In this document: piece by piece, positions 27,626 to 55,055 of the stretch | Layout of the letters: every line of letters begins with the position of its first letter | How positions within the stretch are numbered: position 1 is the first letter of the stretch | Source of the DNA: Candidatus Bathyarchaeota archaeon | GTDB taxonomy: Archaea; Thermoproteota; Bathyarchaeia; TCS64 | Direction: 5' to 3' | NCBI GenBank assembly: GCA_963769425.1 | Contig: CAVYLP010000006.1 | Location: forward strand, 576,001 to 640,000 | Length of the DNA: 64,000 bases | Notes under the pieces: generated by a model | Seen by the model: only the letters and a program-made list of their open reading frames with translations | What the model was told of the DNA's origin: nothing | The model's database searches: none | Translations under genes and position numbers: made by a program

Positions 27626-28615
27626 CTACTTTTCGAGCCCGCTCATCTTCCTAATCTGCCTGCCGACCTTCTCGATCTCGAGACCGTCGACCTCGTCCAT
27701 GAGTGCCTTGAAGTGCTTTGAGCCGTCCTTGTACTCGGCCATCCACTCCTTCGCGAACTTGCCGCTCTGGACATCCTTGAGCACCTTCCTCATGTTCTCC
27801 TCGACGCGGTCGTCTACGATGACAGGGCCGACTGTGAGGCCACCCCACTTCGCCGTGTCACTCACGGCGCGGTACATCCCACCGATGCCCGCCTTGTAGA
27901 TCAGGTCGACGATGAGCTTCAGCTCGTTGCAGACCTCGAAGTAGGCAAGCTCAGGAGGATAACCCGCGTCGACGAGGACCTTGAAGCCCCTCCGGATCAG
28001 CTGATCTGCGCCACCGCAGAGGACCGCTTGCTCGCCGAATAGGTCCTCCTCAGTCTCGTCCTTGAACGTGCTCTCGAGAACCCCAGCCTTACCGCTGCCC
28101 AGCGACTTGGCGAGGGCGAGCGCCGTCTGAAGCGCCTTCCCCGAGGCGTCCTGGTGGACGCTGACGAGGGCCGGGACACCGAAGCCCGCCTCGTACTGGC
28201 GGCGAAGCTCAGCGCCTGGGCTCTTCGGGGCGACCATTATCACATCGACGTCCTTCGGCGGCTTGATGGCGCCGTAGAGGATGTTAAATCCGTGTGCGAA
28301 CTGGAGTGTCTTCCCCTTCTTCATCGCGAGGGCGACCTCCTCCTTCCACACTGTGGGCTGAGCCATGTCGGGGACGAGCATGAGGACTATGTCCCCCTGC
28401 TGCGCGGCCTCGAGTACCGTCGTCACCTTGACGCCGTCTGCTTGGGCCTGCTTCCAGCTCTTGCCCCCGGGGCGGAGGCCAACGACGACGTTGACCCCGC
28501 TGTCCTTCATGTTGAGGGCCTGCGCCCTCCCCTGACTACCGTAGCCTATGACGGCCACCGTCTTGCCCTTCAGAACCTTGTCGTCTATGTCCTTATCGTG
28601 GTATACCTTCACCAT
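27626..28615 (-). CDS. ilvC: Ketol-acid reductoisomerase
   Basis: GYGSQG, FAHGFNI, MVAPKSPG, ETEEDLFGEQAVLCGG, AYFE. Confidence 0.97.
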   Translation of the reverse strand: MVKVYHDKDIDDKVLKGKTVAVIGYGSQGRAQALNMKDSGVNVVVGLRPGGKSWKQAQADGVKVTTVLEAAQQGDIVLMLVPDMAQPTVWKEEVALAMKKGKTLQFAHGFNILYGAIKPPKDVDVIMVAPKSPGAELRRQYEAGFGVPALVSVHQDASGKALQTALALAKSLGSGKAGVLESTFKDETEEDLFGEQAVLCGGADQLIRRGFKVLVDAGYPPELAYFEVCNELKLIVDLIYKAGIGGMYRAVSDTAKWGGLTVGPVIVDDRVEENMRKVLKDVQSGKFAKEWMAEYKDGSKHFKALMDEVDGLEIEKVGRQIRKMSGLEK

Positions 28616-28619
28616 AGTG

Positions 28620-29126
28620 TCACTTCTCCAGCTTTAGCCGCCCCTTCTCGACGGCCGTGACGCCCGTCCTAGAGACCTCCTCGACCCCTATGGGCTTAAC
28701 GGCCTCGAGGAACGCGTCTATCTCCTCAGACTCACCCGTGACCTCGGCTATAAGGTTGTCCGGCTCGATATTCAGGATGAGGCCGTGGTAGTCGTTCACC
28801 AGCTTGAGGGCCTCCTCCCTCGCCATCGGGTCGGTTGTTGTGAGCTTCACCAGCGCCAGCTCCCTGTTGACTGTGCGTAGCGGGTCGAGGCGCTTCACCT
28901 CGATCACGTCCACCATCTTGTCGAGCTGCTCGACCACCTGGTTGACTCCGCGGGCGTCCGCCTGCACGACGATGGTTATGCGGACCGTGTCGTCGTCGAG
29001 CACCGTCCCAGCCGTGATGCTGTGTATGTTGAAGTTCTTCCGACGGAACATGTTGCTTATGTTGAACAATACACCCGGCCTGTTCTCGACGAGGAACGCG
29101 ACAACGTGCATCTCACTCATGGTCAT
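28620..29126 (-). CDS. ilvN: Acetolactate synthase regulatory subunit (copy 1)
   Basis: LVENRPGVL, NIHSIT, QLDKMVDVIEV, RELALVK, RTGVTA. Confidence 0.92.
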   Translation of the reverse strand: MTMSEMHVVAFLVENRPGVLFNISNMFRRKNFNIHSITAGTVLDDDTVRITIVVQADARGVNQVVEQLDKMVDVIEVKRLDPLRTVNRELALVKLTTTDPMAREEALKLVNDYHGLILNIEPDNLIAEVTGESEEIDAFLEAVKPIGVEEVSRTGVTAVEKGRLKLEK

Positions 29127-30814
29127 GCCTCCAGGAGCGCGTCCTTCAGCCCCGCGCCCGGCGGGACTATCGGGTACACGTTCTCCTCCGGGTCAATCGG
29201 GACATCGATGACGGTCGAGACATCGCTCTTGATGGCGCGCCTGACGGCTGCTTGGAAGGATTCGAGGGTGTCGACTCTAACCCCCTCAGCGCCGTACGCC
29301 TCGGCGAGCTTCACCATGTCGGGGTTCCCCTTGAGCTTCACCGCGGAGTAGCGGTGGTCGAAGAAGAGGCGCTGCCACTGTGCGACCATGCCGAGCATGT
29401 GATTGTTCAACACTACCACCACGACCGGAAGCTCCTCCTCTACGCTCGTCGCCATACTGTTCTCCGTCATGCCGAAGCTACCGTCCCCCGCTATATCGAC
29501 GACGGGTACGTCTGGCCTCGCGGCTTTAACGCCAATAGCGGCTGGGAAGCCCCAGCCCATCGTGCCGAGGCCTCCACTAGTGAAGAATGTCCTCGGGTCG
29601 TAGGCGTCGTAATGCAGAGCGGCCCACATCTGACACTGCCCAACCTCAGTTGTGACAATCGCCTCCCGCGGGAGAGTGCTTCGAAGCGCCTTGATAACGT
29701 CTGGTGCCCTTAGGTAACCCTCATTGTGCCCATTACCGTTCGGGTTAACCTGACAACGGAACTCAGCCACCTTCTTGCTCCACTGAGAGCCCACCTCCCC
29801 GCCCGCGCGGAGCTTACTCACGTTATAGAGGAGGCCGCGGAGGCCGAGGGCGGCGTCCCCGACGACGCGGGTCACGGTTTCGACGTTTTTGTCTATCTCG
29901 CTCCTGTCGATGTCGAGGTGGATGATCTTCGCATTTGGCGCGAAGCTCTTCACAGCGCCCGTCGTCCTGTCACTTAGGCGCGCCCCAACGATGAGTAGTA
30001 CATCCGCCTCGGGGACGAGGTTGTTCGCCGCCTGTGTTCCGTGCATCCCGCATAAGCCGAGGCTGAGCGGGTGGTCTGCAGGGAAGGAGCCCTTGCCCAT
30101 GAGTGTGGTCGCCGTAGGCGCCATGAGATACTCGCTGAGGGCGACGAGCTCGCGTGTCGCGCCAGAGTTAATCACACCGCCACCAGCGACCACGACGGGT
30201 CTCTGCGCCTTCGCGAGGAGCGTCGCAGCCCACTCAACCTCGCGTGGATCTGGCTGATAGTTAGGGTGGTACCCCCTGAGCTTAACGGTCTCCGGGAAGC
30301 TGATGTCCTCCACGTCGGTCGTGACATCCTTGGGGAGATCCACGAGGACGGCTCCCCTCCTCCCCGACGAGGCGATCTGGAAAGCGGCCTTAACCGCCCT
30401 CGGTATCTCCGATGCCTTCCTCACCTGCATGTTATACTTAGTCACGGAGGCGCTACACCCGATGATGTCGACTTCCTGGAAAGCATCAGTACCGATCGTG
30501 GCGCGTGTAACCTGTCCAGTGAAGGCGACGACGGCGCTGGAGTCGATGTGAGCTGTAGCCACACCGGTGACGAGGTTCGTTGCCCCCGGGCCCGAGGTCG
30601 CGAGACATACACCGACGCCGCCTGTGGCCCTTGCGTAGCCATCAGCCATGTGCGCAGCCCCCTGCTCATGCCGGGCCAGAATGAACCTGAAGTCACCATT
30701 TAGTATCTCGTCGCAGAGCGGGATGACGACACCGCCAGGGAGCCCGAAGACGTGCTTGACGCCCTCCATCTCGAGGGACTTGACGAATGCCTTAGTACCA
30801 GCCATCTCAACCAA
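29123..30814 (-). CDS. ilvB: Acetolactate synthase large subunit (copy 1)
   Basis: RHEQGAAHMADGYAR, TSGPGATN, TSGGLGTMG, GDGSF, LGMVAQWQ; TTG start at 30814 inferred from GGAGG plus 9 nt and alignment to copy 2. Confidence 0.95.
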   Translation of the reverse strand: MVEMAGTKAFVKSLEMEGVKHVFGLPGGVVIPLCDEILNGDFRFILARHEQGAAHMADGYARATGGVGVCLATSGPGATNLVTGVATAHIDSSAVVAFTGQVTRATIGTDAFQEVDIIGCSASVTKYNMQVRKASEIPRAVKAAFQIASSGRRGAVLVDLPKDVTTDVEDISFPETVKLRGYHPNYQPDPREVEWAATLLAKAQRPVVVAGGGVINSGATRELVALSEYLMAPTATTLMGKGSFPADHPLSLGLCGMHGTQAANNLVPEADVLLIVGARLSDRTTGAVKSFAPNAKIIHLDIDRSEIDKNVETVTRVVGDAALGLRGLLYNVSKLRAGGEVGSQWSKKVAEFRCQVNPNGNGHNEGYLRAPDVIKALRSTLPREAIVTTEVGQCQMWAALHYDAYDPRTFFTSGGLGTMGWGFPAAIGVKAARPDVPVVDIAGDGSFGMTENSMATSVEEELPVVVVVLNNHMLGMVAQWQRLFFDHRYSAVKLKGNPDMVKLAEAYGAEGVRVDTLESFQAAVRRAIKSDVSTVIDVPIDPEENVYPIVPPGAGLKDALLEA

Positions 30815-30912
30815 ACGCGGACGCCTCCAAAGAGTTGAATCGTGGACCAAGCAACGATGCTAAGTCCTTTGAGGAACTCACTATAAACTGACTAGACTTA
30901 ACTGGGGCAGAG

Positions 30913-30936
30913 CTACCGAATAAAGCGATACCCCAT
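30913..30936 (-). CDS. Leader mini-ORF 2 of ilvB copy 1 (MGYRFIR*)
   Basis: ATG directly follows the TAG of mini-ORF 1; GGAGG 9 nt upstream; positional homolog at 52784. Confidence 0.55.
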   Translation of the reverse strand: MGYRFIR

Positions 30937-30981
30937 CTACGCCACCCTCCACTCGGCGGCCATGATAAAGCGATACCCCAT
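30937..30981 (-). CDS. Leader mini-ORF 1 of ilvB copy 1 (MGYRFIMAAEWRVA*)
   Basis: GGAG 9 nt upstream; 14 codons, same length and N-terminus as the homolog at 52739. Confidence 0.55.
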   Translation of the reverse strand: MGYRFIMAAEWRVA

Positions 30982-36611: not shown

Positions 36612-36720
36612 AACCGCTGAGTGAACGGGATATGATAGACTCTAGTAGATTGGGACGTTCACAGATGAACGCGATCCAACCCGGTGAAGGCAATCCCCCA
36701 CCTTAATTCACTCCGCGGTA
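36612..36720 (-). ncRNA. Candidate ~110-nt multi-stem non-coding RNA (family unknown)
   Basis: Terminal helix ACCGC.GAGUGAA/UUCACUC.GCGGU enclosing two G-U-rich hairpins; TTAAAT box about 20 nt upstream. Confidence 0.5.
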
Positions 36721-51037: not shown

Positions 51038-52672
51038 ATGGCAACCGAGAGGCTCGCCGCCAAGCTTAGGGGCTTCGGGCTCGAGAAGGATGAGGCGGAG
51101 ATCTACGTCTTCATCTCCGCATCGGGCCCTACCCCCGCCAGGGTCGTGGCGAGGAGGTTCAACCTCAACCGCATGAAGGCCTACAGGAGCCTCAAGGCGC
51201 TGGAGGAGAAGGAGTTCGTCCAGCGCGTCATGGGTAGGCCGGTGAAGTTCGTCGCCGCCCCCCTTAGGGTCGTCATCGACCGCCAGATGGGTAGCCTCCA
51301 CCAGACGATCTCTGACCTCGAAGCGAACCAAGACGCCTTCATCCGGGAGTGGGAGAACCTCGCGAGCGGCTCGGAGCAGCGCCCGGAGGAGCCGAGGTTC
51401 CGCATCTTCCAGGGGAGGCAGCAGGTCTTCGAGTTACTACTGGAGATGTACGACAGGGCGCATGATACAGTCAGGCTAGTCACGACGACGAGTGACCTCG
51501 CCCGCCTCAGCCTCTGGGGGCTCGACGACAAGCTGAAGGCGCTGAACAGGCAGGGGAAGAAGATCAGGGTCCTCACTCAGATCGACTCGGAGAACTGGAA
51601 GGAGGTCGAGCCTTACAGTGGTTTCGCGGAGACCCGACATATTACCCTTCAGACACCGATCAGGTTCGCCATCATAGATGGTGGTGAGGCCCTGACAACC
51701 GTCGCCATGGACGACTCTATGAGCATGACGACGAGCGCCGACACTGGCCTCTGGACGGACGCGCCGAGCTACGTGGCGGCCCTCGGGATATTCTTCGATG
51801 CCCTTTGGAGCCTCGCACCTGACGCGGAGTCGGTTATAGAGTCACTGAAGACGGGGGAGCCGACCCCCGAGATCAGGACGTACACGACCCAGGAGGAGTA
51901 TGTCTCCATCTTCAGGGGCATGATCGCCAAAGCCACTAGGACGGTAGACATCATTGCTAGGAACGCGACGATGCTCCCGGTGCCGCTCTCGGGGCTCGAG
52001 GAGGTGGCGGGTAGGGGTGTAAACGTGAGGCTGCTCACCCGAACGGATGAGGAGACCCTACCAGAGGTGAGCAGGATCGCCGATACGCCAATAGTCGTAT
52101 CGGAGAACGCCGCCGTCACCGACCTCGTCTTCCTCGCCGTCGACGGGAAGGAGGTTCTCCTTAATGTGCCCCACGCCGAGTCGCAGAAGCGTACCATCTG
52201 GTCCAACATGCCCGCCTACGTGGGCACAATGCTGCTCGTCTTCAAGGACTACTGGGAGCTAGGTAAGCCTCTGCAGGAGAGGCTGCGCCTCGCTGCCCAG
52301 CGGCGGAGGGCGGAGCTTCTATCCAAGAAGATCCGTGAGGGATTCGAGGGTGCGGGCTGGGCGGCGGAGACTCCCGGCGTCGTCGCCGGCACATCTTCCA
52401 AGAGCTACACCTTCGACGTCCTCGCAAGGGACCCCGCCAACACGGACAGCCGCCTCTGCATCGATGTGGTCGTGAACGAGCCCGTCTATAACAAGATAAT
52501 CGAGAGGAGCAACGTCGTCCCCGACCTGGCTGCCTCAAGATACGTCATCGCCTCCATGATGCCCTTCAAGACGGAGGAGCTGAGGCTCGCCGAACTGTAC
52601 CGCATCAGGATTATCCACTCGGACACGGAGGAGGGGCTCGTCTCCTCCCTCGTCAAGCTGGTGCAGAGATAG
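51038..52672 (+). CDS. TrmB-family regulator (wHTH, two effector domains, C-terminal restriction-endonuclease-like domain)
   Basis: FGL...EAEIY...Y.SL..L.EK.FV....RP.KF; duplicated 'IID..E.L' domains; G.S.KSYTFDVLA C-terminal motif. Confidence 0.8.
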   Translation: MATERLAAKLRGFGLEKDEAEIYVFISASGPTPARVVARRFNLNRMKAYRSLKALEEKEFVQRVMGRPVKFVAAPLRVVIDRQMGSLHQTISDLEANQDAFIREWENLASGSEQRPEEPRFRIFQGRQQVFELLLEMYDRAHDTVRLVTTTSDLARLSLWGLDDKLKALNRQGKKIRVLTQIDSENWKEVEPYSGFAETRHITLQTPIRFAIIDGGEALTTVAMDDSMSMTTSADTGLWTDAPSYVAALGIFFDALWSLAPDAESVIESLKTGEPTPEIRTYTTQEEYVSIFRGMIAKATRTVDIIARNATMLPVPLSGLEEVAGRGVNVRLLTRTDEETLPEVSRIADTPIVVSENAAVTDLVFLAVDGKEVLLNVPHAESQKRTIWSNMPAYVGTMLLVFKDYWELGKPLQERLRLAAQRRRAELLSKKIREGFEGAGWAAETPGVVAGTSSKSYTFDVLARDPANTDSRLCIDVVVNEPVYNKIIERSNVVPDLAASRYVIASMMPFKTEELRLAELYRIRIIHSDTEEGLVSSLVKLVQR

Positions 52673-52678
52673 AGCCTA

Positions 52679-52694
52679 CAAACCTTTTTATTCG
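52679..52694 (+). promoter_or_regulatory. BRE/TATA promoter of ilvB copy 2 (CAAACCTTTTTATTCG)
   Basis: Matches the copy-1 promoter; 44 nt to the mini-ORF 1 ATG. Confidence 0.7.
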
Positions 52695-52738
52695 CATCAC
52701 TGTTTGGATAGCTTACATCCCAACTGGGAGGATGGAAC

Positions 52739-52783
52739 ATGGGGTATTGCTTTGTCGAGCCCCCGACCACGGGGGAGAGTTGA
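52739..52783 (+). CDS. Leader mini-ORF 1 of ilvB copy 2 (MGYCFVEPPTTGES*)
   Basis: GGAGG 7 nt upstream; 14 codons; stop abuts the next ATG. Confidence 0.55.
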   Translation: MGYCFVEPPTTGES

Positions 52784-52810
52784 ATGGGGAATCGCATTCT
52801 TAGTCCCTAG
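52784..52810 (+). CDS. Leader mini-ORF 2 of ilvB copy 2 (MGNRILSP*)
   Basis: TGA-ATG junction; GGAG upstream; homolog of 30913-30936. Confidence 0.55.
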   Translation: MGNRILSP

Positions 52811-52873
52811 ATTCCCGTCCGAGACCGAGTTATGGATTGAAGATCCAAGGAACACTTCTGGAGGATTCCATGC

Positions 52874-54559
52874 ATGCCTGAGATGACCGGCGCCGAGGCA
52901 TACGTCAAAGCGCTTGAGAAGGAGGGCGTCGAGTATATCTTCGGGATAACCGGCGCCGCGATCATACCGATCTGCGATGAGTTGCTGAAGTCGAAGATGC
53001 GCTACGTCGGGGGTGTCCACGAGCAGGGCTCGACCCACATGGCTGACGGCTACGCGCGCGTCTCTGGGAGGCCCGGAGTCGTGCAGGTGACGAGCGGCCC
53101 GGGTGCCACGAATATAGTGACCGGACTCGCCACGGCGCAGCTCGACTCGTCGCCCGTCGTCGCACTCACTGGGCAGGTCCCACTCAGTATGGTGGGCACC
53201 GACGCCTTCCAGGAGGTCGACATCATAGGCATCACTGCGTCCGTCACCAAGCACAACATACAGGTCATGGAGGCGGCGGAGATACCGCACGCCATCAAGT
53301 CGGCCTTCTACATCTCATCTACCGGTAGAAAGGGCGCGGTCCTCGTCGACATACCGAAGGACACACAGACCGACAAGGCCGAGATGACCTTCCCCGACAG
53401 CGTTGAGTTCAGAGGCTACCACCCGAACACTGAGCCAAATCCCCAGGAGATGCACTGGGCCGCGACGCTCCTCACAAAGGCGCGGAGACCCGTAATAATC
53501 GCCGGCGGGGGGGCCGTGGCATCCGGAGCCACTGCTGAGCTCGTCGAGCTAGCCGAGATGCTGCAGGCGCCCGTCGCCCACAGCCTAATGGGCAAGGGCG
53601 CGATTCCGAGCAACCACCCGCTCTGCCTCGGCCTGTGCGGCATGCACGGCCGCGTCGAGGCGAACTACATCGTCCCCGAGGCCGATGTCCTCCTAGTGGT
53701 CGGGGCTCGCTTCAGCGACCGCACAACCGGCTCCCTCAGCGGCTTCGCTCCTAACGCGAGGATAATCCACATCGACGTGGACAGGAGCGAGATAGACAAG
53801 AACGTCGACAGCATCACCCGAATAGTCGGTGATGCGAAGCTCGCCATCCGCGGTATAAGGGAGAAGATTGCCCAGCAGAGGGCTACAGGTCCGACCGACG
53901 CCGCTCTCGTGAAGCGCATAGCCGAGCTCAGGGCGCAGACCAACACGCTGTATACTGACGCTCCACTCTCGGGCCCACAAGTAATAAGGGCCATCAGGAG
54001 GGCGATGCCTCCCGAGAGCATCGTTGTCACAGACGTCGGGCAACACCAGATGTGGGCTGCGCAGCACTATGACGTCCGCGGCCCCGGCGAGTTCTTCACG
54101 AGCGGGGGACTGGGCACGATGGGCTGGGGCACGCCGGCAGCGATAGGGGCGAAGGCAGCGAGGCCAGACCTCCCAGTGCTTAACATCTCGGGAGATGGCA
54201 GCTTCGCCATGACGGAGAACAACCTGGCGCTCGCCGTAGACGAGGGATTCCCGATAACCGTCGTTATTCTGAACAACGGAGTCCTCGGCATGGTCGCTCA
54301 GTGGCAGCGCCTCTTCTATGACCGCAGGTACAGCACCATTAAGAGGCCGAAACACCCGGACTTCGCCAAACTCGCGGAAACCTACGGGGCGACCGGCGTG
54401 AAAGCCGAGTCAATAAAGGACATCGAGACCGCAATAAAACGGAGCATAAAGGAGAAGCATACCACTGTCATCGACGTACCGATCGACCCCGAGGAGAACG
54501 TTTACCCTATGATCCCGCCGGGCATGGGTCTCAAGGACATCCTCTTGGGAGGCGCATGA
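52874..54559 (+). CDS. ilvB: Acetolactate synthase large subunit (copy 2)
   Basis: HEQGSTHMADGYAR, TSGPGATN, TSGGLGTMG, GDGSF, LGMVAQWQ. Confidence 0.95.
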   Translation: MPEMTGAEAYVKALEKEGVEYIFGITGAAIIPICDELLKSKMRYVGGVHEQGSTHMADGYARVSGRPGVVQVTSGPGATNIVTGLATAQLDSSPVVALTGQVPLSMVGTDAFQEVDIIGITASVTKHNIQVMEAAEIPHAIKSAFYISSTGRKGAVLVDIPKDTQTDKAEMTFPDSVEFRGYHPNTEPNPQEMHWAATLLTKARRPVIIAGGGAVASGATAELVELAEMLQAPVAHSLMGKGAIPSNHPLCLGLCGMHGRVEANYIVPEADVLLVVGARFSDRTTGSLSGFAPNARIIHIDVDRSEIDKNVDSITRIVGDAKLAIRGIREKIAQQRATGPTDAALVKRIAELRAQTNTLYTDAPLSGPQVIRAIRRAMPPESIVVTDVGQHQMWAAQHYDVRGPGEFFTSGGLGTMGWGTPAAIGAKAARPDLPVLNISGDGSFAMTENNLALAVDEGFPITVVILNNGVLGMVAQWQRLFYDRRYSTIKRPKHPDFAKLAETYGATGVKAESIKDIETAIKRSIKEKHTTVIDVPIDPEENVYPMIPPGMGLKDILLGGA

Positions 54560-54560
54560 T

Positions 54561-55055
54561 ATGCCACTGCACACAGTTAGCTTCCTCGTCGAGAACAAGC
54601 CCGGGGTCCTATTCAAGGTCGCCAACCTCTTCAGGCGCCGAGGCTACAACATACAGAGCCTCACCGTCGGCCCCGTCGAGGGGAGCCCACTCAGTAGGAT
54701 GACCGTCGTCGTCGACGCCGAGAGCCGCATCCTCAACCAGATAGTCGAGCAACTCGACAAGATGGTTGACGTCGTCAAGGTGAAGCGCCTTGACCCCATC
54801 AGGACTCTGAGTAGGGAGCTGCTCCTGATTAAGCTGAAGACTTCTGACCCGATAGCGAGGATCGAGGCGGTGAACACTGTGAACGCCTACCACGGCCTCA
54901 TACTCGACGTCGAGCCCGACATCCTCATTGCGGAGGTCACGGGTCCCACCGACGAAATCGACGGGTTCCTGAAGAGGATCGCCCCTATCGGCATCGAGGA
55001 GATGAGCAGAACGGGAGCGGCCGCGATCGAGAGGGGCAACGTCAAGCTCGCATAA
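54561..55055 (+). CDS. ilvN: Acetolactate synthase regulatory subunit (copy 2)
   Basis: LVENKPGVL, NIQSLTVG, QLDKMVDVVKV, RELLLIK. Confidence 0.92.
   Translation: MPLHTVSFLVENKPGVLFKVANLFRRRGYNIQSLTVGPVEGSPLSRMTVVVDAESRILNQIVEQLDKMVDVVKVKRLDPIRTLSRELLLIKLKTSDPIARIEAVNTVNAYHGLILDVEPDILIAEVTGPTDEIDGFLKRIAPIGIEEMSRTGAAAIERGNVKLA

Follow-up and report, generated by a model that had tools for sequence, protein, structure and literature searches.

We find that two real mini-ORFs lie between an archaeal-type TATA element and the ilvB2-ilvN2 genes in the window, i.e., the whole 64,000-nt stretch of DNA that we analyzed. Judged by their sequence, these mini-ORFs are two copies of a conserved cassette, AUG-GGG-NRU-HRY-HUU followed by a putative sensor codon. 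The leader that they form is probably a pair of amino-acid-sensing +1 programmed-frameshift cassettes, similar in kind to prfB, and triggered by a hungry sensor codon. We also consider it rather likely that a portable 18-nt cassette, AUG-GGG-NRU-HRY-NUU plus a hungry sense codon, serves as a general sensor of aminoacyl-tRNA supply in Bathyarchaeia.

Layout of the leader and the cassette family

A sequence-only reading of this DNA had described a tandem mini-ORF leader upstream of the second ilvB copy. All the sequence features that it listed are present, and the mini-ORFs that it proposed, with SD-like sequence upstream, are borne out. The elements of the leader, and the two genes that follow it, are:

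52679 to 52694, plus strand: candidate promoter element, BRE/TATA-like, CAAACCTTTTTATTCG (CAAACC TTTTTATT CG), identified by reading the sequence
52726 to 52731, plus strand: Shine-Dalgarno-like GGGAGG for the first cassette AUG, with a 7-nt spacer, invariant in 9/9 orthologues
52739 to 52756, plus strand: sensor cassette 1, ATG GGG TAT TGC TTT plus putative sensor codon GTC (Val)
52739 to 52783, plus strand: frame-0 mini-ORF 1, MGYCFVEPPTTGES and stop, its TGA abutting the second AUG
52760 to 52775, plus strand: predicted GC hairpin CCCCCG-ACCA-CGGGGG in mini-ORF 1
52784 to 52801, plus strand: sensor cassette 2, ATG GGG AAT CGC ATT plus putative sensor codon CTT (Leu; codon 5 is Ile), kept in orthologues
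52784 to 52810, plus strand: frame-0 mini-ORF 2, MGNRILSP and stop, joined to mini-ORF 1 at a TGA-ATG junction
52740 to 52886, plus strand: +1-frame ORF, WGIALSSPRPRGRVEWGIAFLVPRFPSETELWIEDPRNTSGGFHACLR and stop, spanning both cassettes, with its TGA at 52884-52886
52833 to 52847, plus strand: small hairpin TGGAT-tgaag-ATCCA inside the +1 ORF (TGGAT 52833-37, ATCCA 52843-47)
52860 to 52864, plus strand: GGAGG Shine-Dalgarno of ilvB2, conserved in the alignment
52874 to 54559, plus strand: ilvB2, acetolactate synthase large subunit (TIGR00118, 698.5 bits)
54561 to 55055, plus strand: ilvN2, acetolactate synthase small subunit (NF008864, 172.5 bits)

The candidate promoter element, 44 nt from the first mini-ORF ATG, is kept in 9/9 orthologous ilvB2 leaders, and similar T-rich boxes are found 45-60 nt 5' of the cassette in other leaders. 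The GGGAGG at 52726-52731 is predicted to form a duplex of -11.6 kcal/mol with the 3' end of this genome's 16S rRNA. Metatranscriptome contigs from relatives span the leader into ilvB2 (52738-53176 and 52806-52956), with DNA contamination being possible; where contigs end, at 52738 and 52767, the repeated motif has probably broken the assembly, and no transcript start can be read from them. A TrmB-like regulator gene is located just 5' of the leader, at 51038-52672.

The first copy of this arrangement lies on the opposite strand of the window:

30922 to 30981, minus strand: tandem cassettes MGYRFIMAAEWRVA and MGYRFIR, each followed by a stop, with putative sensor codons ATC and ATT, 5' of ilvB1-ilvN-ilvC
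30807 to 30980, minus strand: +1-frame ORF, its TGA (30809-30807) one base before the ilvB1 ATG at 30805

The motif ATGGGGWATYGCWTT matches four times in the 64-kb window, where 0.02 matches are expected and 0/100 shuffles reach four, and our genome-wide search with up to one mismatch returned seven matches against none for the reversed control. In this genome the cassette precedes ilvB1-ilvN-ilvC, ilvB2-ilvN2, ilvA (threonine ammonia-lyase) and valS, and we observe the motif in 17/17 genomes of the genus and 24/24 of the family. The motif is present in orthologous leaders and commoner than chance would give, which supports the reading of the ilvB copy 2 leader as a conserved cis-regulatory one. 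The likeness between the two copies was earlier ascribed to selection rather than recent duplication, and this view holds, since the cassette is kept across the archaeal class. Sites that we set aside were an Asn cassette (MGYRFNG and stop, at G000:C6:282245) with no gene downstream on the plus strand, a His-like site at window position 36701 (minus strand) that is not close to hisS, and chance motif matches within ordinary coding sequences (loci L111, L112, L114-L116, L120, L121 and L254-L258).

Codon 6 (codons 5-6 in the second mini-ORF) had been singled out as an informative branched-chain codon, and codon 6 in 60 regions fetched from relatives supports this. Each mini-ORF has one sensor codon, and we observe that this codon is matched to the downstream gene. 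For example, codon 6 is Val in 12/12 valS leaders and Ile in 10/10 isopropylmalate/citramalate-family synthase genes; ilvA leaders have Ile plus Ile (5/5), and ilvB leaders have Val+Ile, Val+(Ile)Leu, Val+Leu+Ile or Ile(+Ile). In addition, trpE has Trp (UGG), and the hisS leader has His. A search with ATGGGGNATNGYNTTNNY gave 137 matches in 41 genomes (three with the reversed control), and codon 6 is ATY, GTY or CTY in 130 of them. The Trp version of the cassette (sensor UGG) is present in 87 of 401 genomes of the class. Successive cassettes are 45 or 42 nt apart, in all cases a multiple of three.

The +1 frame and the proposed slip

The sequence-only reading had added, as a caveat, that another frame might be the functional one, and this frame turns out to be the central point. 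In the ilvB2 leader it is open from 52740 to the TGA that overlaps ATG 52883, an alternative in-frame start of ilvB2 (ATGA, 52883-52886). It has no ATG or GTG start of its own, the sole candidate start is a TTG at -35 from the cassette ATG, and the nearest +1 stop 5' of the cassette is at -158. Our analysis of 41 ilvA, ilvB and valS leaders demonstrated the same frame architecture, in that past the last cassette the first +1 stop lies no more than 17 nt from a main-frame start in 41/41, and within 5 nt of it in 34/41 (offsets of +4 in 19, -1, i.e., ATGA-type, in 10, -5 in five, and others in seven). The upstream ORF stop therefore overlaps or adjoins the downstream start, as in termination-reinitiation. 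Frames 0 and +2 of these leaders stop 17-98 nt past the last cassette, and in shuffled leaders the +1 frame stays open with a probability of about 0.2 per leader. Many leaders have the +1 frame closed upstream at -2, -5 or -8, with no start codon.

In other Bathyarchaeia there are loci where the +1 frame is the coding frame of the gene itself. A scan of 185,579 species for synthase fusions, where the query allowed a variable gap of 38-58 nt to RDGEQ, yielded 78 unique loci, and in all 78 the base before TGGGG gives a start codon (ATG in 72, GTG in six), frame 0 stops after 6-16 codons, the +1 frame has no stop, and RDGEQ is in the +1 frame despite the variable gap. Ca. Bathyarchaeum tardum is among the organisms with the synthase cassette. 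In nine of ten family-level synthase examples the coding frame has no ATG, GTG or TTG ahead of DTTLRDGEQ, and TrpE (TIGR01820) is likewise fused in +1 with no start codon in 14/14 loci examined. A short frame-0 ORF with a start-less +1 continuation, the arrangement of prfB, is therefore found in 41/41 leaders, 78/78 synthase loci and 14/14 trpE loci. Frameshifting rather than classical attenuation is favoured by a +1 frame that runs open up to the main start, that lacks a start codon, and in which the fused synthase and trpE genes are encoded.

The slip itself, its starvation trigger and the way in which +1 translation switches on ilvB2 are what we infer from evidence that is comparative throughout, as follows. 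Guided by the SD at 52726-52731, a ribosome would initiate at the cassette AUG, read frame 0 (M-G-Y-C-F) and test the supply of Val at GUC in cassette 1 and of Leu at CUU, after AUU for Ile, in cassette 2. With the sensor tRNA charged and plentiful, the frame would be kept, and the ribosome would stop after 14 codons, restart at the adjoining second AUG, pass the second test in cassette 2 and stop after eight codons, leaving about 75 nt of leader untranslated. With the sensor tRNA scarce, the ribosome would wait with NUU in its P site while the A site stays empty, and the peptidyl-tRNA may re-pair one base forward (UUU to UUG in cassette 1, AUU to UUC in cassette 2). This slip would be aided by an SD-like GGGG(U)AUC, with 6 nt between the end of its G run and the NUU codon downstream, and in cassette 1 perhaps also by the downstream GC hairpin. 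The shifted ribosome would read the +1 ORF through the leader and end on the UGA overlapping the ilvB2 AUG (AUGA), where termination may permit re-initiation on ilvB2, or ribosome cover of the nascent RNA may persist. Two cassettes in tandem would then act as an OR gate for Val, Ile and Leu. In the fused genes, a slip would yield the enzyme directly, i.e., a citramalate/isopropylmalate-type synthase (Ile) or TrpE (Trp), and for ilvB, ilvA or valS it would bring the ribosome to the gene's start by way of an upstream ORF.

The composition of the cassette is consistent with such a slip site. Position 13 is U in 191/191 cassettes whose sensor codon starts with a purine, although the query fixed TTT for 78 of these 191, and it is C in 14, A in 16, U in two and G in one of those whose sensor starts with a pyrimidine. 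With this covariation of positions 13 and 16, two of three pairs would re-form after a slip with either sensor class, and the P-site tRNA could re-pair in +1 (NUU then N), part of these data being biased by the query. GGGG and the NUU codon are always 6 nt apart. For cassette nucleotides 2-12, pairing with the last 18 nt of the 16S rRNA of this genome is predicted at -7 to -12 kcal/mol (real SDs, -11); part of the rRNA segment modelled for GGGG(U)AUC lies in helix 45, and the 6-nt spacing is unlike that of prfB. In the A site the cassette presents a sense codon (GUC, AUY, CUY or UGG), unlike the prfB class, where RF2 reads UGA.

Several observations count against the model. The +1 frame is conserved as though reading in it began at codon 2, and a slip at codon 5/6 leaves this pattern unaccounted for; the good SD that ilvB2 itself has is masked by no convincing structure; tRNA-Phe on UUA or UUG after the slip would meet a purine-purine wobble clash; the GC hairpin is not general; and in the hisS leader the +1 frame closes early, after 13 codons.

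RNA structure and rival explanations

The complementarities reported earlier exist, GGGAATC (52787-52793) with GATTCCC (52810-52816), and TGGAT with ATCCA in the small hairpin. The compensated stems read into them, and a switch between mutually exclusive stems or an anti-SD, did not hold up, as whole-leader folds are no stabler than shuffles (z = 0.96 for the ilvB2 leader and -0.01 for copy 1) and the RNAalifold consensus is weak. For the 3' half of nine orthologous leaders this consensus comes to only -5.7 kcal/mol, its covariation term is unfavourable at +0.73, and both sides change in only one of 13 pairs. In the hairpin at 52833-52847, one pair changes on both sides and two of the nine sequences break the hairpin; the GATTCCC partner is intact in 6/9 orthologues, and cannot covary because its own partner is the invariant motif. 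Of the leader stems, only the GC hairpin in mini-ORF 1 (52760-52775) is well supported by prediction. Its start is 6 nt past the sensor codon's first base, the 3' arm is also SD-like for the second AUG, and a hairpin is predicted in 37/38 mini-ORFs of this type with differing stem sequences. Since it is missing from terminal cassettes and fused genes, it is not a general stimulator. A scan by the bacterial-type rule found no hairpin-plus-T-run terminator, and Rfam gave no match at the gathering threshold in the window except two tRNAs, and none at E <= 1 in 52650-52900. A T-box or other Rfam cis-regulator was rejected on the lack of a covariance-model match, and a T-box-like tRNA contact by reasoning, with UGGG mismatched to the A73 discriminator that such a contact would expect and the specifier only 10 nt away.

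These structural results bear on classical leader-peptide control, where a ribosome stalled at the branched-chain codon refolds the RNA (antiterminator or anti-SD) and the +1 frame is irrelevant. The short ORFs with SD-like sequence and codons for the regulating amino acid, as an attenuator has, the conserved hairpin 3' of the sensor codon with its SD-like 3' arm, and a small hairpin at 52833-52847 kept in most orthologues would all suit it. Exclusive terminator and antiterminator hairpins, however, were found neither by fold stability nor by covariation nor by the terminator scan; there is a single sensor codon per ORF; and the +1 frame open to the main start in 41/41 leaders, and synthase and trpE genes with no start in their own frame, would go unexplained, which makes this explanation quite improbable. 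We give similarly little credence to an independent start of the +1 ORF at a non-canonical codon, e.g., AUH at positions 8-10, with the frame-0 AUG as a decoy. Those positions are AUC, AUU or AUA, near-cognate starts, in most cassettes, and the +1 residues are conserved, but GUU and GUC variants also occur there, the upstream SD is 14-16 nt away and GGGG only 1 nt away, the strong AUG 7 nt upstream would capture ribosomes, and neither the sensor codon nor the position 13/16 covariation would have a role. Very improbable, in our view, is that the 15-nt motif is an RNA or DNA binding site for a regulatory protein or uncharged tRNA, with the frames incidental. Strong nucleotide-level conservation, repeated copies at fixed spacing and the TrmB-like gene just upstream speak for it; against it are a spacing that is always a multiple of three, the start codon before TGGGG in every synthase locus, the conserved frame-0 stops and open +1 frame, the UGGG mismatch to A73, the lack of an Rfam match, and the location of the motif inside coding sequence in the fused genes.

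Entry into the +1 frame at codon 2 deserves more weight, although we consider it unlikely. Here tRNA-Gly would slip from GGG to GGN, GGGN would be read as four bases, or RNA polymerase would drop one G. The sensor would then, just as doubtfully, drive a -1 return at U-UUR into frame 0, with early termination when the cognate tRNA is abundant. The cassette varies at positions 7, 10 and 13, which are third codon positions when read in +1, and the +1 residues remain G-[IV]-[AVTI]-[LF] across the class, while frame-0 residues 3 and 4 vary radically (Y/N/D/H/C; R/C/S/Y/H/N); all four bases occur at position 7 (T 175, A 32, G 14, C 3); and the position 13/16 covariation fits -1 re-pairing equally well. 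A search with aragorn found only ordinary Gly(GCC) and Gly(UCC) tRNAs in this genome, which is 91% complete, so GGG would be read by wobble; a quadruplet-reading tRNA-Gly was rejected on this result. Codon-2 entry, however, requires two recoding events, turns tandem cassettes into an AND gate (all amino acids short) that is less sensible for ilvB, and leaves the fixed 6-nt spacing from GGGG to NUU unexplained. Four Gs make a short run for polymerase slippage, and no deletion is seen there in the RNA contigs covering 52738-52883, though contigs hide rare variants. Finally, position 10 is never G, which avoidance of a +1 AUG or GUG would also explain.

Comparison with known systems

The +1 slip at a hungry sensor codon, if true, would give hungry-codon frameshifting its first regulatory role in nature and archaeal cellular genes their first programmed +1 frameshift. 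Our literature searches found no description of the cassette or of an amino-acid-sensing frameshift. To our knowledge, archaea do not use bacterial-type leader-peptide attenuators or T-boxes, and we know of little on how they sense amino-acid supply at the level of the operon. The cassette would supply this missing regulatory principle as an archaeal counterpart to bacterial attenuation and T-boxes, in constructs testable by sensor-codon swaps. It would also allow correction of the annotation of seemingly start-less genes in hundreds of Bathyarchaeia genomes, and may offer a compact part for synthetic amino-acid sensors. Only one programmed frameshift, a -1 case, is reported for archaea in passages of a 2021 review of archaeal recoding (PMC8211752), and passages of a 2016 recoding review (PMC5009743) state that hungry-codon frameshifting has no known functional trans-frame product.

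A close parallel is prfB, whose slip site is CUU-UGA, with an SD-like run 3 nt from the slip codon. In both systems frame 0 is a short ORF and the product, or the continuation, lies in +1, and the Trp cassette has CUU-UGG in place of CUU-UGA. In the cassette, however, the slow codon is a sense codon that would read out aminoacyl-tRNA supply, as opposed to a stop codon read by RF2; the G run is 6 nt, not 3 nt, from the slip codon; the cassette is at the very start of the ORF, is archaeal, and is modular across genes and amino acids; and in the 64-kb window the +1 reading belongs to an upstream ORF, to which the gene would be coupled, rather than to the gene itself. In prfB an internal SD-like G run 5' of the slip is a stimulator, as described in the portion of the recoding review that we cite (PMC5009743), and the GGGG run of the cassette is a candidate for this role. 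The same portion of that review (PMC5009743) describes ermC, where a frameshift in the leader carries ribosomes into the spacer and switches on the downstream gene. The inducer of this bacterial system is a drug on the ribosome (ketolide), and activation unfolds a known SD-sequestering structure, whereas we found none in the ilvB2 leader.

Bacterial ilv, trp, his and phe attenuation also matches leader codons to the pathway end product, with multivalent control of ilvB, but uses runs of codons where the cassette has one and has a terminator/antiterminator alternative where the read-out here would be the reading frame. Frameshifting in pheL appears incidental, according to the relevant part of the same review (PMC5009743). 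Antizyme likewise uses a metabolite-responsive +1 frameshift as a homeostatic sensor, but it is a single eukaryotic gene family in which polyamines are sensed at a stop codon that has a pseudoknot on its 3' side, and its shift gives negative feedback on synthesis rather than induction of biosynthetic genes. T-boxes, which are bacterial, likewise form a regulon of synthetase and biosynthesis genes, each with a specifier codon for its own amino acid; here, with no T-box structure or Rfam match, the codon would be read by a translating ribosome and not through tRNA-RNA binding.

Cassettes in the ilvB2 leader and the source genome

Reading the sequence directly, we found all the features that the sequence-only reading had described in the leader of ilvB2-ilvN2, where two mini-ORFs open with a cassette, AUG-GGG-NRU-HRY-HUU, followed by a sensor codon (codon 6, frame 0).

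Features of the window (strand in brackets)
52679-52694 (+): TATA-like element CAAACCTTTTTATTCG, read in the sequence
52726-52731 (+): GGGAGG, read in the sequence
52739-52783 (+): ORF1, MGYCFVEPPTTGES then stop, read in the sequence
52784-52810 (+): ORF2, MGNRILSP then stop, joined to ORF1 by a TGA-ATG junction
52740 to the TGA at 52884-52886 (+): ORF in the +1 frame, overlapping the ilvB2 ATG at 52883
52860-52864 (+): SD of ilvB2 itself
ilvB2 leader (+): two copies of ATGGGGWATYGCWTT, window motif search
30981 and 30936 (-): copies of ATGGGGWATYGCWTT upstream of ilvB1-ilvN-ilvC, window motif search

The motif ATGGGGWATYGCWTT thus listed occurs four times in the window, against 0.02 expected by chance. 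The products of ilvB2 and ilvN2 are the large (TIGR00118, 698.5 bits) and small (NF008864, 172.5 bits) subunits of acetolactate synthase. The window has two ilvB-ilvN pairs (27626-30805, minus strand; 52874-55055, plus strand), separated by 22 kb, with ilvC following copy 1 only; the sensor codons are Ile and Ile in copy 1 and Val and (Ile)Leu in copy 2, a difference suggesting that the isozymes have separate roles. The gene upstream of ilvB2 (51038-52672, plus strand) stops 7 nt short of its promoter element; the 544-aa product has a weak TrmB-like HTH at its N-terminus (E 5e-5).

The genome-wide motif search that the sequence-only reading had proposed returned 7 copies (<=1 mismatch; reversed control, 0), and cassettes are present as a tandem pair upstream of the threonine ammonia-lyase gene and singly upstream of valS. 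A degenerate coding pattern, MGY[RC]F, occurs 7 times in the genome, and 7/7 are mini-ORFs of 6-14 codons. One of these seven, MGYRFNG then stop (source genome, G000:C6:282245, outside the window), is an orphan built from the synonymous codons ATGGGGTACCGCTTCAAC; the genes on either side are on the minus strand, and none was found downstream on the plus strand. The only isopropylmalate/citramalate-synthase homologue of this genome (G000:C3:100934-101712, minus strand) has an ordinary ATG start, and no cassette was found on it; here the Ile-sensing cassette is carried by ilvA instead, and which Ile-specific entry enzyme bears the sensor appears to vary by lineage.

Conservation and the match of sensor codon to gene

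The motif was found in 36 of 41 related genomes (genus 17/17, family 24/24, second family of the order 6/6), with reversed-control matches at 0-2 per genome; 60 regions from relatives were fetched and oriented. The looser pattern ATGGGGNATNGYNTTNNY gave 137 matches in the 41 genomes versus 3 control matches, and 130 of the 137 have ATY, GTY or CTY at codon 6. Two loci, L254 (G404:C1:2442912) and L255 (G401:C1:723309), encode a small hydrophobic protein of about 58 aa in which a cassette-like DNA word specifies K-W-G-[IV]-A-F; this appears to be normal coding DNA of a kind that gives rise to false hits in motif searches, and we rejected both loci as real cassettes.

Codon 6 (frame 0) by downstream gene; counts are not independent, as orthologous leaders share descent
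valS: Val (GTC/GTT), 12/12; a 13th, truncated locus is concordant
Isopropylmalate/citramalate-synthase family (TIGR02090): Ile, 10/10
ilvA: Ile and Ile, 5/5
ilvB, multiple cassettes: Val+Ile; Val+(Ile)Leu; Val+Leu+Ile (triple cassette, L037); Ile+Ile (ilvB1 of the genus)
ilvB, single cassette: Ile, Val or Ile-Leu

A gene specific to one pathway has the codon for its own product, and ilvB, the shared enzyme, has several; among orthologous leaders the sensor codon is retained while adjacent codons vary. In addition, complete genomes of other Bathyarchaeia contain a Trp variant, ATGGGGAATCGCCTT followed by TGG, whose pattern RTGGGGNRTHRYHTTTGG is present in 87 of 401 genomes of the class versus about 11 reversed-control matches (counted by hand). 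With a Trp codon before trpE, the codon-gene match reaches an unrelated pathway.

Further variants were observed. Two genomes of a single genus carry a His-type form, ATGGGGGATCG[CT]ATT plus CAC (MGDRIH...), some 200 nt ahead of hisS (L040/L271, G021:C1:1216635-1216652, minus strand; L272, G212:C20:16109-16126). In this form +1 is open for 13 codons (WGIAFTRGGCVHT then stop), so that its output, if it is a His sensor, would differ from that of other leaders. At L113 (G025:C35:5383-5400), ATGGGGGATCGCCTT plus TGC stands behind a TATA-like box, and the open +1 frame encodes a 75-aa winged-helix-like protein (…TQGEIAEETNLSRRTIKHALRILREEGFLEERR…), which could be a regulatory protein produced through such a frameshift with Cys as the sensor, or could instead be translated from an internal GTG or ATG. 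In valS leaders a block, GCGGACA(A/C)(G/C)…, is conserved across genera within the +1 upstream ORF (L007, about 1570-1600; L083, L087, L091, L094, L096, L117, L118, L039, L048 and L052); it reads (G/S/P)-A-D-(K/T)-(V/I) in +1, takes the form GCGGACAAGGTTTTAAGGCTCC in the genus, and may be a second signal there.

The +1 frame in leaders and fused genes

The other frame that the sequence-only reading raised as a caveat is present: +1 reads WGIAL through every cassette. In all 41 ilvA, ilvB and valS leaders, +1 meets its first stop past the last cassette only at -20 to +1 nt relative to the main protein's conserved N-terminus, with frames 0 and +2 stopping 17-98 nt past that cassette; shuffled spacers keep +1 open with P ~0.2 each. 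Cassettes are spaced 45 or 42 nt apart, and therefore one +1 frame is common to all of them. Its stop lies <=17 nt from a main-frame start codon (41/41), as stop-N-ATG in 19 leaders, an ATGA-type overlap in 10, TTGGCTGA in 5 and other arrangements in 7.

The synthase genes are themselves encoded in the cassette's +1 frame, which in 9 of 10 is without ATG, GTG or TTG before the catalytic DTTLRDGEQ. The loose pattern TGGGG-N40-70-MGNGAYGGNGARCA has matches in 188 of 401 Bathyarchaeia genomes, and among the matches listed the cassette lies immediately 5′ of a synthase gene in about 130 of about 150 (counted by eye). A specific pattern, scanned over 185,579 species, gave at least 120 stretches; the 80 matches listed are labelled almost all Bathyarchaeota or Bathyarchaeia. 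Ca. Bathyarchaeum tardum and Ca. Bathycorpusculum are among the synthase-cassette matches listed, as are one Krumholzibacteriaceae and one Nitrososphaerota, possibly mis-binned. At 78 unique synthase loci, for which the query fixed positions 8-18 and so biased variation there, the base before TGGGG makes ATG (72) or GTG (6), frame 0 ends after 6-16 codons (78/78), and +1 contains RDGEQ (78/78; gap left free in the query, 38-58 nt) and no stop. Likewise, at all 14 trpE-type loci examined, frame 0 ends after 16-24 codons and +1 is anthranilate synthase component I (TIGR01820, 281 bits), with no +1 start codon upstream or within at least the first 46 codons.

Possible slip site, proposed mechanism and known systems

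The best-supported reading of these sequences is a +1 frameshift at a hungry codon, with the shifted frame reaching the main start or being the gene itself. Translation in +1 might turn on ilvB2 despite its own SD, either because ribosomes terminate and reinitiate where stop and start overlap, or because a ribosome shields the nascent RNA and keeps it from being terminated early; FttA, a termination factor of archaea, acts on untranslated RNA.

Three observations point to a slip at codon 5|6: the sensor codon lies in the frame 0 reading; GGGG and the NUU codon are separated by 6 nt in every case; and position 13 covaries with position 16, a purine at 16 going with U at 13 in 191/191 (TTT was fixed by the query in 78 of these, other searches permitting A or any base) and a pyrimidine with C (14), A (16), U (2) or G (1). 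On a +1 slip the P-site tRNA would re-form 2 of 3 base pairs with either position-16 class. Entry of the ribosome into +1 at GGGG (codon 2) would instead fit the variation pattern, in which positions 7, 10 and 13 vary, real leaders never have G at position 10, and +1 is kept as G-[IV]-[AVTI]-[LF] with frame 0 radically altered. It would also fit the tRNA set, since only tRNA-Gly(UCC) and (GCC) and no (CCC) were found (aragorn; genome 91% complete), so that the invariant GGG would be read by wobble. The two sets of constraints conflict. The absence of G from position 10 is partly explained by the +1 AUG or GUG that it would produce, and the variation may be explained in part by A8-U9-H10 lengthening the pairing with the rRNA tail.

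Further alternatives to the frameshift are ribosome stalling of the classical kind coupled to an RNA switch, +1 initiation at a non-canonical codon, and an operator bound by a protein or tRNA. Of 38 ORF1-type mini-ORFs, 37 have a predicted GC hairpin that begins 6 nt past the sensor codon's first base, with differing stems (CCCCCG/CGGGGG, GCCGCC/GGTGGC, TCCCAG/CTGGGA); the hairpin is absent from terminal cassettes and fused genes. Of the stem switch proposed from sequence, the complementary words are all present in the leader, but the leader beyond the GC hairpin is without detectable structure; it has no match to Rfam families and no hairpin-plus-T-run site was found. In many leaders a stop at -2, -5 or -8 closes +1 ahead of the first cassette, and these contain no canonical +1 start codon upstream of that cassette. 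Parts of the window occur in 24 public runs, 6 of them RNA libraries with small shares; contigs from two RNA libraries (relatives ~90% identical) span the leader and ilvB2, may include DNA and carry no transcript-end information.

Our literature search on archaeal attenuation, hungry-codon frameshifting, Bathyarchaeia and anthranilate synthase frameshifting found no description of the cassette. A 2016 review knew of no natural hungry-codon frameshift with a functional product (PMC5009743), and a 2021 review counted one archaeal programmed frameshift, a -1 (PMC8211752). A pairing of -7 to -12 kcal/mol is predicted between cassette nt 2-12 and the last 18 nt of 16S rRNA, although the modelled rRNA lies partly in helix 45; this predicted pairing resembles the internal SD of prfB (PMC5009743).
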